This document shows, piece after piece, positions 59,389 through 64,000 of a DNA stretch of 64,000 nt (the stretch's first letter is position 1; each line of letters opens with the position of its first letter). Below the pieces are notes generated by a model, which saw only the letters and a list, made by a program, of their open reading frames with translations, was not told the DNA's origin and ran no database searches. A program made the position numbers and the translations under genes. This DNA is from Myxococcota bacterium (lineage in GTDB: Bacteria; Myxococcota_A; UBA9160; UBA6930): contig OZ245002.1 of NCBI GenBank assembly GCA_965223415.1, positions 4,960,001 through 5,024,000 of the forward strand. The letters run 5' to 3'.

Positions 59389-61293
59389 AATCCCAAGGTC
59401 GTGGCCCAGCTGGAAGGCCAGCTGCTCGACCACCACCGGATCGGAGGTGTGGAAGGTGGTGGCGTCGTCGGCGCTGCCGTCTTGCAGGAACGCATACGAG
59501 GCTCCCTCGCCCATGTAGACGAGGAAGGGCTGCTCGCGGGTGCCGGAGCTCGGCGCCACCCACGTGACCGGAACGCCCGGCATCAGCTGCTCGTCGCGCT
59601 CGGCGAAGAGGAAGACGTCCGTGTGGGGCGTGGTGCCGCGCAGCTGCTCCAGGCCCCCGCGCAGGGAGCCGGCCTCGCCGCCGGGCGGCGCCAGGAAGAG
59701 CAGCCCCCGCTGATGGGGATTGCGGCTCACCTCGTCGAGAAGGAAGCGCGCCATCTGGTCGCCGAGCTCCCCGCGCCCTTCGTCGCCTTCGGCCAGGAGG
59801 CTCTCCAGGAGCCGCCGGAAGGGGACCTCCTCCAGCTCGTAGCGGCGGAGCAGGCTCTTGCGGTCCTCCTCGATGCGCCGCTCGAGGCAGGCGTGCAGGG
59901 AGGTCCGGTCGACACCGTTCGACGGGAAGGTGGCCATGGCGGAAAGGACCACGGGCCGGTCGTCGCCCAGCTCCCGGAGCGCCGGACTGCGCTCCACCGC
60001 CGTCCGCAGCCGCCGCTTCGCCACCGCCGAGCCCAGGCTGTCGCACTCGGGCAGCATGACCAGGTACTCGTGGTCGCTCTGGGTCGCCAGCAGGTCGGTG
60101 ACCCGCACCGCCTTCTCCAGATCGGCCACCACCGCCTGGATCCAGGCGCTGAACTCCCGCAGCGAGAGGCGCTCGCGCACGGGGCCGATCGGGTCCAGCT
60201 GCATGCGCACGAGCGAGACACTGCGGCCGAAGCGCTTGGCCTTCTGGAGCTCGTGGTGGAGCACGTCGTCGAGGTAGGCGCCGGTGTAGGCGCGAGTGGT
60301 CGGGTCCTTGAAGGAGCGTCGCTCGAGGGACTGGAACTCGATCGCGTTGGCCAGCGCCTGGCTCGCGAACAGCGCGAAGCGCTCGGCCACCTCCCGGTCG
60401 GCCGCGTCGAATTCGGCGCCGTCGAGCCGGTCGGTCAGGCGCAGCACACCCAGCAAGCGGCCGTCGTGGCGAAGGGAGACGTAGAGCGGGGCCCGGGACG
60501 CACCGGTGCCCTCCGGCTGCAGCGAGCGGCAGCCCGGGTCCCGGAGTGGCTGGAGCGCTTCGGGCAGGCGATCCAGGACGAGCTGCGTCTCCTCCTCGTC
60601 GACCCGCACCAGGCCGCCCACGCCGCACAGCTCGAGTGCCCGCGGCGGGTCCCCGTCCGCGAGCCAGGCGACCCCGGCGTGGGCGTTCGTCTCCAGGCAG
60701 AGCACCTCGACCACGCGATCGGCCAGGGGCTCCAGCGAAAGCGTCGAGAACAAGCTCAGCGCTCGCTCGTACTGGGCGAAGTGGCCCATGAAGGACAGAT
60801 TCTCGGCGACCAGGCGGTCGTGCTCGGCGTGCATGGCCCGGCGTTCGAGCACGCCGTCGATCGCGCGCAGCAGCGAGGTGCGGTCGATGGGCTTGAGCAG
60901 GTAGTCCGTCGCACCGAGCCGCATCGCTTCCACGGCGGTCTTCACGTCGCCCACGCTGGTGACCACCACCACGTCCTGCTCCGGCCAGCGCTCCTTCACC
61001 TGGCGGACGAGCTCGCGGCCGTCCATCTCGGGCATCACCAGATCCGTGAGGACCAGGTCGACCGGCTCCTCCTCCATCAGGGCGAGGGCCTCGGCGCCGC
61101 TTCCGGCCGTGACGACCTCGAAGTCTTCCTGCTGAAGGAGGTCCTCGAGGAACACCCGGAAGTAGAGCTGGTCGTCGACCGCGAGGATGCGCGCCTGGTT
61201 CAAGGCTCTTGCCTCGCGTGATGGGTCCGGGCCTGGTTCAAGGATCACCCCTCCCGGATCCTGTCCGGGCATGGTTCGTAGGCCCTTCCTCAC
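59374..61293 (-). CDS. Response regulator: receiver + GAF-like + degenerate GGDEF + extra C-terminal domain
   Basis: AVDD, LTDLVMP, TS and LLKP; DPTTRAYT; RVTD-LLATQ-SDHEY. Confidence 0.82.
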   Translation of the reverse strand: MRKGLRTMPGQDPGGVILEPGPDPSREARALNQARILAVDDQLYFRVFLEDLLQQEDFEVVTAGSGAEALALMEEEPVDLVLTDLVMPEMDGRELVRQVKERWPEQDVVVVTSVGDVKTAVEAMRLGATDYLLKPIDRTSLLRAIDGVLERRAMHAEHDRLVAENLSFMGHFAQYERALSLFSTLSLEPLADRVVEVLCLETNAHAGVAWLADGDPPRALELCGVGGLVRVDEEETQLVLDRLPEALQPLRDPGCRSLQPEGTGASRAPLYVSLRHDGRLLGVLRLTDRLDGAEFDAADREVAERFALFASQALANAIEFQSLERRSFKDPTTRAYTGAYLDDVLHHELQKAKRFGRSVSLVRMQLDPIGPVRERLSLREFSAWIQAVVADLEKAVRVTDLLATQSDHEYLVMLPECDSLGSAVAKRRLRTAVERSPALRELGDDRPVVLSAMATFPSNGVDRTSLHACLERRIEEDRKSLLRRYELEEVPFRRLLESLLAEGDEGRGELGDQMARFLLDEVSRNPHQRGLLFLAPPGGEAGSLRGGLEQLRGTTPHTDVFLFAERDEQLMPGVPVTWVAPSSGTREQPFLVYMGEGASYAFLQDGSADDATTFHTSDPVVVEQLAFQLGHDLGIPIGE

Positions 61294-62708
61294 GACGGGG
61301 TCGGAAAGGCGCCCTCTTCATCGGCGGATCGTCCTGGCTCCGTGAGTGTGCCGCGAAGCGGGACCGGGCGGCCGATCAAGGAGTGCGGGGTCGCGTCGAC
61401 GATCTCCACCTCCAACAGGCTGCCCCCGGGGGCTCGGTGGTGGACGTTCACGACCCGGTGCTGGGGGTCCCGGCCCCGGAGCTGGCCCGGCGATCTCCCG
61501 GTCGCGCCCTCTACGAGGATCTCGGCGCGCTCCCCGACCCGGGCCCGGTGGGCCTGGAGCGTCAGGCGGCGCTGGAGGGCCTGGAGCCGCTCCAGGCGCT
61601 CCTGGGCGACCTCCGGCGGCACCCGGGCCTCCCGGCGCGCGGCCGCGGCCGTGCCAGGCCGCGGCGAGTATTTGAAGGAGTACGCGTCCACGAAGCCCAC
61701 CTCCTCCACCAGGGCGAGGGTGGCCTGGAAGTCCGCTTCGGTCTCACCGGGGAAGCCGACGATCAGGTCGGTGGTGAGGACCAGGTCCGGCCGGGCCGCC
61801 TGGAGCGCACGGGCCCAGTCGCGGAAGTCGTCGGCGGTGTAGCGCCGACGCATGGCCTCGAGGACGCGATCCGAGCCGCTCTGGAGCGGCAGGTGGACGT
61901 GAGGGCAGAGCTCCGGGATCTCGGCGTGGGCCCGCACCAGGGCCTCGTCGAAGAAGCTCGGGTGGGGGCTCGTGTAGCGGATGCGATCCAGGCCCGGGAT
62001 CGCCGCCAGCCGCCCCAGCAGCTCGGCGAACGCCAGCGTTCCGGCGGCCTCGGCCCGGCCCCGGCGCAGGTCGTGCCGGCCGTAGGCATTCACGGTCTGA
62101 CCGAGCAGGGTCACCTCCCGCACGCCGCCCCCGGCCAGGGCCCGGGCCTCGGCGAGGATCCGCTCGGCGGGCCGACTGATCTCCCGCCCCCGGGTAGTCG
62201 GGACGATGCAGAAGCTGCAGAACAGGTCGCAACCTTCCATGACGGTCAGGAAGGCCCGCCCGGGGGTCCGGTCCCGAAACGCCGGGTGCCGCTCGGGCAG
62301 ATCGAATCGCTCGAGGGACGCGACCACTCCGGTGCGGGCCACCCGTCGGCCGGTCCGGGCGGCCTCGATCATCTCTGGGACGTAGCGCAGGTTGTGGGTA
62401 CCGAACACGAAGTCGACGTGGCCAAAGCGCCCGAGCAGCGCGTCACCCTCCTGCTGGGCGACGCAGCCCCCGACCCCGAGCACCCGCTCCGGCGCCGCGC
62501 GCTTCCACTCGCGCAGCGCTCCCAGGTCGCTGTAGAGCTTGTGCTCGGCCTTCTCCCGGATCGAGCAGGTATTGATGATGAGGAGCTCGCTCGTCTCCTC
62601 GTCGTCCGCGGAGCCCCAGCCGGCGTGGTGGAGCAGGTTCGCCAGCTTGTCCGAATCGTGGACGTTCATCTGGCAGCCGTAGGTGCGGAGGGCGAAGCGG
62701 CGCGGCAC
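61290..62708 (-). CDS. miaB: tRNA methylthiotransferase MiaB
   Basis: TYGCQMNVHDS, NTCSIREKAE, GCDLFCSFC, QSGS, YSPRPGT and TRAM domain. Confidence 0.95.
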   Translation of the reverse strand: MPRRFALRTYGCQMNVHDSDKLANLLHHAGWGSADDEETSELLIINTCSIREKAEHKLYSDLGALREWKRAAPERVLGVGGCVAQQEGDALLGRFGHVDFVFGTHNLRYVPEMIEAARTGRRVARTGVVASLERFDLPERHPAFRDRTPGRAFLTVMEGCDLFCSFCIVPTTRGREISRPAERILAEARALAGGGVREVTLLGQTVNAYGRHDLRRGRAEAAGTLAFAELLGRLAAIPGLDRIRYTSPHPSFFDEALVRAHAEIPELCPHVHLPLQSGSDRVLEAMRRRYTADDFRDWARALQAARPDLVLTTDLIVGFPGETEADFQATLALVEEVGFVDAYSFKYSPRPGTAAAARREARVPPEVAQERLERLQALQRRLTLQAHRARVGERAEILVEGATGRSPGQLRGRDPQHRVVNVHHRAPGGSLLEVEIVDATPHSLIGRPVPLRGTLTEPGRSADEEGAFPTPS

Positions 62709-62714
62709 GGCGGC

Positions 62715-62744
62715 AGCCTACCCGAGAGCGCCGGCGAGCGTCAA
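62715..62744 (-). promoter_or_regulatory. miaB promoter, probably leaderless
   Basis: TTGACG, 18-nt spacer, TAGGCT, then 6 nt to GTG; no SD. Confidence 0.55.
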
Positions 62745-62853
62745 AGTGTCCGGATTTCCTGGAAAAACCTGAACTTCACGCTCAAGGAACAGGGGCAACC
62801 TACGGAAGTTGCTGGCCTTTGCGGATCACCAACCGTGTTCTGCGAAATGATGT

Positions 62854-62883
62854 TTGACAACGCGGGCCGGCCTGGCACATACT
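62854..62883 (+). promoter_or_regulatory. Sigma70 promoter with no credible downstream CDS
   Basis: TTGACA (62854-62859), 18-nt spacer, CATACT (62878-62883). Confidence 0.65.
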
Positions 62884-62888
62884 CGGCT

Positions 62889-63034
62889 TCACCGACTCCA
62901 ACAGGTTCATGGAGCGGCGGTGGATAAGGCATTTCTCACCGAAATGTCCAACCTCTCACCCCCCATCATCTATCCACCGCCTCTCCGCCCTGAACGAAGC
63001 CCCGCCCGGCGCGAGCCTGGCGGGGCTTCTCGTT
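62889..63034 (+). ncRNA. Candidate structured small RNA
   Basis: Promoter, long stem 62911-62926/62971-62986, inner hairpin, C-rich loops and a terminal hairpin. Confidence 0.6.
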
Positions 63035-64000
63035 GGAGGCGAAGAGCACGGGGCCGACCGCATCCGCGAGCATCCGTCCCACCTCGCGCTCGCCCTCCGG
63101 CGTGAAGTGGCAGTCGTCCATCAGCCAGCGTTCTCGGTCGAGGCGGTAGAGGTCCACCAGCGGAGCGGCCAGCTCGGCGGCGACTTCGCGCGTCGCCGCG
63201 TTGTTGGCTCGCGCCCGGGCCTCGAGGCTCGGGAGCAGCTCGGGCCGATGGGTGAGCACGCTCGACGCGTAGCCCTCGGTCCGGAACGGGACGGTAGCGA
63301 GGACCGGGACCGCTCCGAGGGCCCGTCCACCGGCGACGAAGCGGCGCAGGTTCGCCTCGAAGGTGGCGCCGATCCCCGGCCGTTCCAGGTTCGCGGCGAG
63401 CTCGTCGACGGTCGGCCGGTTGTCGTAGCGGATCGAGCCGTAGAGGGGGTGCTCGGCACCGGCCGAGAACCCGAGGCGCCCGCGGCCGCTGGCCAGTACG
63501 AGCATCGCCAGATGGGAGACCCGGAACAGCCGCTTGAAGGGCCGATTGCTCGCCCGTAGGTCGTAGTCGAATCGGCGGTAGTGGCTGTAATCGTCCCGGT
63601 AGTCGTTCCAGAGCTGGGGGAAGATCTCGTTGCGGCCGTCGGTCATCACCACCACGTCGGGCTCGAGCCCGGCGACGTGGGCGTTCAGGTGGAGCAGGGT
63701 CTCGCGGGAGGTCCAGCCGGGCACGCCGGCGTTCACGACCTCGACCGGGCGCCCCGGGTAGCGGCGGGCCAGCTCCTCGCCGAGGCGCACGGCGCCGGTC
63801 TCGTCGTCCTCCACCCCGATCCCGTAGACCGTCGAGGCGCCCATCAGCACGACGCGGCGCACGCCCGCGGGCTTGGGGACGCGAAACGGCGGGCTCCGGA
63901 AGCCCCTCTCGTCATGGCGAAAGCCCGGGGCCTCGAAGTCCGGCGTGAGGCGGTAGCCCAGCGCCTCGTCCCACGTGAAGCGTCCCCGGGTCTCGGTCTC
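62966..64000 (-). CDS. SGNH/GDSL hydrolase family protein, 5' end outside the window
   Basis: RVVLMGASTVYG, VVNAGVPG, DGRNE and DDCHFTPEG. Confidence 0.8.
   Translation of the reverse strand, partial: ETETRGRFTWDEALGYRLTPDFEAPGFRHDERGFRSPPFRVPKPAGVRRVVLMGASTVYGIGVEDDETGAVRLGEELARRYPGRPVEVVNAGVPGWTSRETLLHLNAHVAGLEPDVVVMTDGRNEIFPQLWNDYRDDYSHYRRFDYDLRASNRPFKRLFRVSHLAMLVLASGRGRLGFSAGAEHPLYGSIRYDNRPTVDELAANLERPGIGATFEANLRRFVAGGRALGAVPVLATVPFRTEGYASSVLTHRPELLPSLEARARANNAATREVAAELAAPLVDLYRLDRERWLMDDCHFTPEGEREVGRMLADAVGPVLFASNEKPRQARAGRGFVQGGEAVDR
62996..63034 (+). terminator. Intrinsic terminator-like hairpin, possibly bidirectional
   Basis: GAAGCCCCGCC-C-GGC[GCGA]GCC-T-GGCGGGGCTTC-TCGTT; weak U-tract. 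Confidence 0.65.

Follow-up and report, generated by a model that had tools for sequence, protein, structure and literature searches.

Does the structured segment that lies divergent from miaB in this genome encode a regulatory RNA, and, if it does, on which genes might that RNA act? The window analyzed here is a stretch of 64,000 nucleotides (nt) from a Myxococcota bacterium (assembly GCA_965223415.1, contig OZ245002.1, positions 4,960,001 to 5,024,000), and at 62854 to 63036 on its plus strand it carries the element that an original prediction, made from the letters alone, described as a candidate small RNA (sRNA) gene with C-rich loops. All of the coordinates that were proposed then for the promoter, stem, hairpin, C-rich stretch, and terminator were correct on re-reading. 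Judged by its sequence features, the element is a real and new stand-alone sRNA gene family, with its own promoter, an intrinsic terminator, a conserved structure, and no coding frame. Its invariant loop, CUCUCACCCCCC, is Watson-Crick complementary to GGGGGGUGAGAG, a motif that in the main order carrying the RNA recurs at the ribosome-binding site of ftsA, at the ribosome-binding site of ftsZ, and in the loop of a hairpin in the 3' untranslated region (UTR) of nrdJ.

Anatomy and conservation of the RNA gene

The sRNA promoter is of the sigma-70 type (62854 to 62883, plus strand), with TTGACA at 62854-62859, an 18-nt spacer, and CATACT at 62878-62883, and an A-rich GCGAAA tract lies immediately 5' of it. 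It is the only sigma-70-like site in 62000-64000, where shuffled sequences gave a mean of 0.1. From the position of the -10 box, we infer that transcription starts at about 62890, which would give a 5' leader of 62890 to 62910. Beyond the leader lies a 15-bp stem, P1, whose 5' strand (62911 to 62926; GGAGCGGCGGUGGAUA, in DNA GGAGCGGCGGTGGATA) pairs with its 3' strand (62971 to 62986; UAUCCACCGCCUCUCC, in DNA TATCCACCGCCTCTCC) in both the minimum free energy fold and the consensus structure. P1 encloses a hairpin, P2 (62928 to 62948), formed by GGCAUUUC and GAAAUGUC around the loop UCACC (in DNA, GGCATTTC-TCACC-GAAATGTC), and a 22-nt single-stranded C-rich segment (62949 to 62970) that contains CAACCTCTCACCCCCCATC (62949-62967). 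Within this segment, the block AACCUCUCACCCCCCAU (62950-62966) shows no variation in 107 sequences, and the proposed seed, CUCUCACCCCCC (62953-62964), is part of that block. The loop has an unpaired probability of 0.96 to 1.0, which for the CCCCCC run is about 1. The intrinsic terminator (62996 to 63036, plus strand) consists of GAAGCCCCGCC...GGCGGGGCUUC followed by UUCUCGUU (in DNA, TTCTCGTT) and forms a GC-rich hairpin at 62996-63029 with a GCGA loop.

Some of the details on which the original prediction had remarked are features of this window rather than of the family. The extension of the stem by GTTCA (62905-62909) and TGAAC (62991-62995) is present here but falls outside the consensus structure, and the GCGA terminator loop, also correctly read, is variable in relatives. 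Likewise, TCTCACC does occur twice in this window, but its first copy is in the P2 loop, which varies among relatives. The proposal that UCUCACC is the seed has been replaced by CUCUCACCCCCC.

The plus-strand fold (-74.6 kcal/mol; z = -8.45) was not equaled by any of 200 shuffled sequences, and the minus-strand fold had a z score of -4.42. In an alignment of 107 distinct sequences, RNAalifold recovers P1, P2, and the terminator, and 11 of the 29 base pairs keep pairing with both sides changed, which makes this a conserved structure with covariation. Paired cells make up 99.1% of 3,094, compared with 43 to 51% when partners are slid by 1 to 3 columns, and none of 500 shuffles matched any measure of structure. 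Most of the compensatory changes are in the terminator (7 of 10 pairs of its main helix), while P1 (3 of 9 pairs) and P2 (0 of 7) are mostly kept as sequence. For example, one P1 pair changes from U-A to C-G in 12 of the 107 sequences, and 99.8% of the cells of this helix are paired. Another observation settles the strand: one pair of P1 is U-A in 75 sequences and U-G in 30, and one pair of P2 is G-U in 53 and A-U in 44, and the U-G and G-U pairs would be mismatches, such as C-A, on the minus strand. Relatives also carry a T-rich tail after the terminator on the plus strand.

Promoters of this type lie on the plus strand no more than 110 nt 5' of P1 in 85 of 106 relatives, where at least five of six matches to TTGACA, a spacer of 16 to 19 nt, and NATAMT (CATAAT, CATACT, or GATAAT) were required; shuffled sequences gave 7 of 2,120, and the reverse complements gave 0 of 106. 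The distance between the -10 box and P1 ranges from 6 to 82 nt across relatives. One genome (G032, locus L027) has a tandem 7-nt repeat (CAAGATT/CCAAGAT, about ten copies) at about 1600-1680 of the locus in place of the usual promoter region 5' of P1. With the conserved terminator, the covarying structure, and the lack of an Rfam match, the promoter upholds the idea of an independent plus-strand sRNA. The Rfam 15 cmscan of 60000-64000 (E ≤ 10), a check that had been proposed from the outset, returned only five chance-level matches (microRNA, Y RNA, int-alpA, and snoRNA), all far below gathering scores.

The element is present as a single copy in its own 5.83-Mb single-contig genome (G000). Of 41 genomes of the order, 37 contain it by BLAST, with its own genome counted; the core is 73 to 95% identical, and the flanks do not align. 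A search for the loop pattern in a one-genome-per-species collection gave 106 contigs, most of them titled as Myxococcota or Deltaproteobacteria metagenome-assembled genomes and several bearing other labels that are probably wrong. A covariance model built from 65 diverse copies matched 28 of 151 genomes sampled across the phylum: 23 in the main order (with G000 counted and one weak match of 43 bits), all four genomes of one sister-order family (72 to 92 bits), and one elsewhere that scores 37 bits and spans just a short stem and the terminator. By this search, the RNA belongs to one class-level lineage and was found in none of the other classes sampled. Within family f10 of the main order, it is divergent in sequence in one genome (G097) and was not found in another (G033). 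Genome G037, which has 7% contamination, has two copies of the sRNA (contigs C569 and C53), and contig C100 of genome G029 has two copies of ftsA in opposite orientations, both with the G-rich site; both cases are probably strain mixtures or assembly artifacts.

Searches of open-access papers and preprints, by loop sequence and by Myxococcota sRNA, miaB, and ftsZ, found no description of this RNA. The single full-text match to the loop sequence was an unrelated herpesvirus paper.

Complementarity to ftsA, ftsZ, and nrdJ

The 41 genomes of the order were searched for GGGGTGAGAGG, and 83 of the approximately 84 sites outside the sRNA gene were read. Recurrent contexts were seen; one is the ribosome-binding site of a gene that begins with MARKDELIVGLDIGTTK, which is FtsA, and another is a noncoding hairpin. 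A protein search with FtsA in the same genomes gave 30 loci, in which GGGGGGUGAGAG-like sites immediately precede the start codons of both ftsA and the next gene, ftsZ. Pfam supports the identities of the products (FtsA/SHS2 and Tubulin/FtsZ), and the gene with the hairpin encodes an RNR barrel and a TSCPD domain, as in a class II-type ribonucleotide reductase, and is called nrdJ here.

Watson-Crick runs to the loop of at least 9 nt occur between -30 and +3 of ftsA in 16 of 30 genomes, upstream of ftsZ in 20 of 29, and in the nrdJ 3' UTR in 23 of 30; runs of at least 11 nt occur in 9 of 30, 9 of 29, and 17 of 30, respectively. The regions upstream of miaB, which served as a control, have no run of either length (0 of 98 for both). 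With 300 shuffled loops, the mean count is <1; the observed counts of runs of at least 9 nt were reached by two shuffled loops for ftsA, one for ftsZ, and two for nrdJ, and the counts of at least 11 nt were reached by none at any of the three. These counts are for Watson-Crick pairs only, because shuffled C/U-rich loops reach at least 9 nt in about one-third of loci when G-U pairs are allowed. A genome-wide duplexfold ranking was likewise dropped: it allows long interior loops, and nearly all seeds passed the cutoff.

Shorter words of the motif follow the same pattern. GGGGGGTGAGA occurs 145 times in the 41 genomes, of which 37 are the sRNA gene itself, leaving 108 versus 28 for the reversed word. 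Forty of the 108 belong to ftsA (10), ftsZ (12), and the nrdJ 3' UTR (18), with coordinates alone as the basis for four of the sites at ftsZ and for some at nrdJ, and seven further sites are at a gene for a solute-binding protein in the window's own genus. The motif is uncommon; in the window's own genome, GGGGGGTGA occurs 53 times; eight of these occurrences resemble ribosome-binding sites, and ftsZ is among them.

The ftsZ site in the window's genome, GGGGGGUGA, lies 2 nt before the ATG, and the computed duplex of the loop over this ribosome-binding site has an energy of -21.3 kcal/mol. The gene itself is at G000:C1 3979740-3981098 on the minus strand (locus L238). FtsZ of the order is extended at its N terminus by an acidic stretch of about 40 residues (MGKDRDPRD...LLEVGPEDG...LLEFE), and the Pfam GTPase domain begins at residue 40. 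The spacer between ftsA and ftsZ contains a conserved stretch (TCGCAACTTT...TTAGGAT-like) that is promoter-like in appearance.

The nrdJ hairpin is located 30 to 80 nt behind the stop codon and has the stem GGCGUCUC/GAGACGCC, a loop of about 14 nt with a G run, and a terminator after it. It is present, with compensatory changes, in 24 of 30 genomes of the order, and a search of Rfam (E ≤ 1) returned nothing for it beyond chance microRNA matches. The copy in the window's own genome is outside the window, at G000:C1 approximately 637200-637310 on the minus strand (loci L289/L290; the others are L291-L319). At ftsA, 14 genomes of the phylum without the sRNA have sites of the ordinary GGAGG type, as they do at ftsZ in the 12 for which the start region was recovered; one genome without the sRNA has GGGUGGGUGAGAUG before ftsZ. 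The hairpin was absent from all four of the genomes without the sRNA that were examined for it.

The 3' end of the organism's own 16S ribosomal RNA (rRNA) is GGAUCACCUCCUUUCU, with the anti-Shine-Dalgarno tail GAUCACCUCCUUUCU. The sRNA loop shares the UCACC core of this tail and goes on with CCCCC, which makes the G-rich sites extended Shine-Dalgarno sequences; their GAGAG extension complements the sRNA and not the rRNA. The original suggestion of an anti-Shine-Dalgarno RNA is supported by the complementarity of the invariant loop to conserved G-rich ribosome-binding sites at ftsA and ftsZ. Energies were computed for the window's genome as hybrid plus opening energy. The loop hybrid at ftsZ has -21.3 kcal/mol with an opening cost of +2.0, and the 16S tail has -16.8 kcal/mol; the corresponding values are -28.7, +10.4, and -15.9 kcal/mol at the nrdJ 3' UTR and -15.0, +4.1, and -11.3 kcal/mol at ftsA. 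For the consensus site of the order, the loop reaches -28.7 kcal/mol versus -15.4 kcal/mol for the 16S tail. RNAcofold of the whole sRNA, which gave energy changes (ddG) of -2 to -5, no better than for shuffled targets, was set aside because it cannot form pairs inside a closed loop. Hfq (PF17209) was not found in the window's single-contig genome, which is 97% complete.

A long trans-antisense target was rejected: elsewhere in the genome there is no complement of at least 14 nt to the 35-nt loop region, and there are one 13-mer and six 12-mers. Loop-complementary sites that resemble ribosome-binding sites are located at 4115244, 3361660, 4162141, 1446853, and 1978194. The genes at such sites encode a family-5 solute-binding protein (with the site in all six genomes of the genus), a beta-lactamase-family serine hydrolase, a homologue of DksA (also in G013), RmuC, and DapA (also in G005), and these five genes are possible further members of the regulon.

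Proposed action and competing explanations

We favor, with moderate confidence and on the strength of sequence comparisons, an Hfq-independent, trans-acting RNA, similar to 6C or to DicF and DinR, that would occlude G-rich Shine-Dalgarno sites and take part in the control of division. The role in division is the best supported one because of the conserved complementarity to ftsA, ftsZ, and the nrdJ 3' UTR. An independent sRNA of about 145 nt would be made from approximately 62890-63036 on the plus strand, with P1, P2, the C-rich segment, and the terminator. Its seed, in the manner of an anti-Shine-Dalgarno tail, would pair without Hfq with GGGGGGUGAGAG at the starts of the ftsZ, ftsA, and a few other messenger RNAs (mRNAs). 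At the ftsZ and ftsA sites, the sRNA would outcompete the ribosome, leading to less synthesis of the division proteins, and with the hairpin in the nrdJ 3' UTR it would pair loop to loop, so that either the fate of the nrdJ mRNA is altered or the sRNA is titrated.

The last possibility can be extended to a checkpoint made of RNA only, which we regard as speculative and rather unlikely. According to this scheme, nrdJ would be strongly transcribed when deoxynucleoside triphosphates are needed and replication is under way, and its hairpin would then titrate the sRNA and free the ftsA and ftsZ sites. The loop would imitate the 16S anti-Shine-Dalgarno tail and bind the special sites more tightly than the ribosome does. 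Division would thereby be tied to the synthesis of DNA precursors with no chaperone involved.

RNA sequencing runs contain a small share of the words sampled from the window. Six short contigs over the conserved core, 79 to 193 nt long and at depths of 2 to 9, came from four metatranscriptome runs, one to three per run, each run from a different study; one of the contigs ends 3 nt past the terminator tail. Several observations weigh against our account, and the first concern these contigs: two reach upstream of the -10 box, and one continues for 147 nt after 62981, beyond the position of this window's terminator. As they have no strand and no true ends, the contigs attest to presence in RNA libraries and are not proof of a transcript. 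Overall, the shifted 11-mer GGGGTGAGAGG is not enriched (about 84 matches versus 69 for the backwards control); enrichment is seen for the word moved toward the G run, GGGGGGTGAGA. The counts given above are not independent events, because the genomes are related.

The sister order presents a larger difficulty. It keeps an identical loop, yet its ftsA sites have at most runs of G6-7, the recovered stretches upstream of ftsZ have no motif (one of four has a G7 run), and the hairpin is missing from its nrdJ 3' UTRs (3 of 3). Since the loop is kept there without the sites, ftsA, ftsZ, and nrdJ alone cannot explain its invariance; the sole target lead in the sister order is a gene for a small Ala/Lys-rich protein in two of the four genomes. 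In family f10, the genome with the divergent sRNA (G097) lacks the ftsA, ftsZ, and nrdJ motifs, and the genome in which the sRNA was not found (G033) has weak ftsA and ftsZ sites. Even within the genus of the window's genome, no more than GGGGGG(A) is left of the ftsA site. No compensatory covariation links the loop to the motif, because both are invariant. Furthermore, GGGGGGUGA is also an extended Shine-Dalgarno sequence that pairs with the 16S tail, part of its conservation may be for translation, and sequence-conserved P1 and P2 helices with little covariation would fit a protein partner as well.

The last point leads to the alternative that survives best, though we still consider it unlikely: a conserved RNA that acts through a protein by sequestering or scaffolding it, as 6S, CsrB, and Y RNAs do, with the matches at ftsA, ftsZ, and nrdJ being secondary or coincidental. 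Conservation of the sequence over nearly the full length, with few or no two-sided changes in P1 and P2, is as expected for such an RNA, as are the strong, constitutive-looking promoter with its A-rich upstream tract, retained in most relatives, and the identical loop in a sister order without the ftsZ and nrdJ sites. A 6S RNA was likewise not found in the genome in a search with RF00013, but the silence of this model says little, because the control was positive in only 5 of 14 genomes. What counts against a protein partner is the exact complement of the loop at three independent conserved sites, far above the expectation from shuffled loops, together with the lack of any linked candidate partner gene, miaB being the only conserved neighbor. 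The shape also differs, and 6S RNA itself was rejected as an identity: there is no RF00013 match at the locus or in the genome, and the fold, a domain of about 76 nt whose bubble is one-sided, is unlike the 6S rod of about 180 nt with its central two-sided bubble. The signal recognition particle RNA is located elsewhere in the genome.

A cis effect on miaB, which encodes a tRNA methylthiotransferase (61290 to 62708, minus strand; Pfam UPF0004, Radical_SAM, and TRAM), is quite improbable. The divergent transcript could interfere with or coregulate miaB, or the RNA could pair with the miaB message as IsrR of Staphylococcus does, and an sRNA that represses miaB is indeed on record in IsrR, as described in PMC11448259. 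The linkage is strict: as originally noted for this window, the element is divergent from miaB, and it is so in 111 of the 111 loci that reach the gene, at distances of 184 to 591 nt (median, 274 nt). The neighbor on the other side is variable. These 111 are part of 135 loci, which include 28 repeats of a species genome; among the 24 without miaB, the flank is limited to about 300 nt in 23, and the remaining locus stops 348 nt from the loop.

In this window, the miaB start is 146 nt from the sRNA -35 box. A putative miaB promoter, read from the sequence, is at 62715 to 62744 on the minus strand (TTGACG, an 18-nt spacer, and TAGGCT) and is separated by 6 nt from the GTG start, which suggests a leaderless mRNA. 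Several relatives share the layout TTGAC...GGTAGG(C/T)T before miaB, and others have a leader of 40 to 60 nt with a GAGG site. The two promoters are about 110 nt apart, the transcripts do not overlap, and a leaderless-looking miaB here would have no Shine-Dalgarno site to occlude. As a target, miaB was rejected on energies as well. Duplexes of the loop with 98 miaB 5' regions average -17.4 kcal/mol, compared with -16.4 to -19.7 kcal/mol for 20 shuffled loops, and the best sites are scattered. Watson-Crick runs of at least 9 nt, absent from the upstream regions, occur in 4 of 104 miaB coding fragments. Overall, miaB is probably not a target of the sRNA.

Between the sRNA and miaB promoters, at 62768-62786, the minus strand has a terminator-like hairpin and T run (CTTGAGCGTGAAGTTCAGG TTTTTCC). 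It might stop read-through from the hydrolase gene described next ahead of miaB.

The convergent GDSL/SGNH hydrolase gene is an open reading frame (ORF) at 62966 to 63862 on the minus strand (Lipase_GDSL_2 at residues 7-259 of 298), and, as had been pointed out at the start, it overlaps the 3' part of the sRNA in antisense orientation, here through its final 71 nt (62966-63036). That the element serves as a cis-antisense regulator of this gene, or as a mere bidirectional terminator for it, is highly improbable, even though the palindromic terminator hairpin folds on the minus strand too. None of 135 loci has the SGNH protein next to the element, which is itself conserved; the overlap is therefore local to this genome, and the lack of synteny contradicts it as a general function. 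Moreover, the overlapped tail lies outside the Pfam domain, whose end is 39 residues short of the stop, and the G-U pairs and T tract fit the plus strand. Least credible of all is that the element encodes a small protein or is the leader of a gene on the plus strand: plus-strand ORFs of 83 amino acids (from 62854) and 216 amino acids (ATG at 62909) do run over the element, but in many relatives the latter ATG is CTG, ACG, or GGG, 1-nt indels occur in the P2 loop and the P1 3' strand, conservation tracks the helices and not codons, and the terminator follows with no conserved plus-strand gene downstream. The unconserved start and the indels likewise bear out the earlier statement that there is no credible coding sequence.

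Related systems and significance

The 6C RNA of Actinobacteria is among the closest functional parallels to the sRNA proposed here. In mycobacteria, 6C is reported to bind mRNAs through C-rich loops and multiple G-C pairs without Hfq or ProQ and to regulate DNA replication genes, with dnaB as a validated target (PMC6486639), and in Corynebacterium it is described as abundant and stable, with a strong promoter, and as tied to the DNA damage response and the control of cell division (PMC5014011). Like 6C (B11/6C in Mycobacterium and cgb_03605 in Corynebacterium), the element is small, highly conserved, and from a high-GC lineage, and its run of six cytosines is predicted to be exposed. As with 6C, Hfq does not come into play, since none was found in this genome, and genes for division and DNA precursors are the predicted targets. 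However, it has no 6C match at E ≤ 10, comes from another phylum (as labeled, Myxococcota), and is not a homologue. In place of the two C-rich hairpin loops of 6C, it has one C-rich segment within a closed stem, with a longer, invariant seed, and the gene is fixed beside miaB.

Control of division through ftsZ is also known from DicF, of an Escherichia coli prophage, and from DinR, which comes from the 3' end of dinI in Klebsiella. DinR is reported to repress ftsZ translation by occupying the ribosome-binding site (PMC10907235), DicF to control metabolism and cell division (PMC5069750), and StsR of Rhodobacter is another division-linked sRNA (PMC8266604). Complementarity to the ftsZ site in 20 of 29 genomes is the likeness to DicF and DinR here. 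Those RNAs depend on Hfq and are narrowly distributed, being prophage-borne or derived from a 3' UTR, whereas this one is a core stand-alone gene of a class-level lineage, with no Hfq found in the genome and with further matches at ftsA and the nrdJ 3' UTR hairpin; there is no similarity in sequence or in Rfam. By the Rfam scan, none of the RNAs compared in this section is a homologue.

Unpaired C-rich motifs that pair with G-rich ribosome-binding sites are a feature of some sRNAs of Firmicutes and alphaproteobacteria, among them RsaE/RoxS and the cuckoo RNAs. IsrR is grouped with these as a C-rich anti-Shine-Dalgarno sRNA (PMC11448259). The element differs from all of them in having no Rfam match, a single long seed that copies the 16S UCACC core, and another predicted regulon. 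Pxr of Myxococcus xanthus, with which it was originally compared, is likewise a small regulatory RNA from a myxobacterial lineage, has stem-loops, and ends in a stem that resembles a terminator, and the comparison stands as an analogy only. As described in PMC5684412, in the main text of which "C-rich" occurs 0 times, Pxr is directly downstream of pxrR, which encodes an NtrC-like regulator, and is confined to the Cystobacterineae. The present RNA is divergent from miaB and was found in no other class among the 151 sampled genomes, and it is by description that it is set apart from Pxr.

The element is an RNA gene with the conservation of a housekeeping gene, found in more than 100 species-level genomes, and it comes with a concrete predicted regulon of ftsA, ftsZ, and nrdJ. 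To our knowledge, very few regulatory RNAs other than Pxr have been described in Myxococcota, and none in this uncultured lineage. If the pairing with these genes is true, then control of FtsZ synthesis by sRNA would not be confined to prophage and SOS add-ons of enterobacteria and might belong to the ancient core of an entire bacterial lineage. G-C-rich pairing without Hfq, in the style of 6C, would then also have arisen independently outside the Actinobacteria. The three-way motif shared by ftsA, ftsZ, and nrdJ may thus offer a handle on the coupling of replication and division in bacteria that are not yet culturable.

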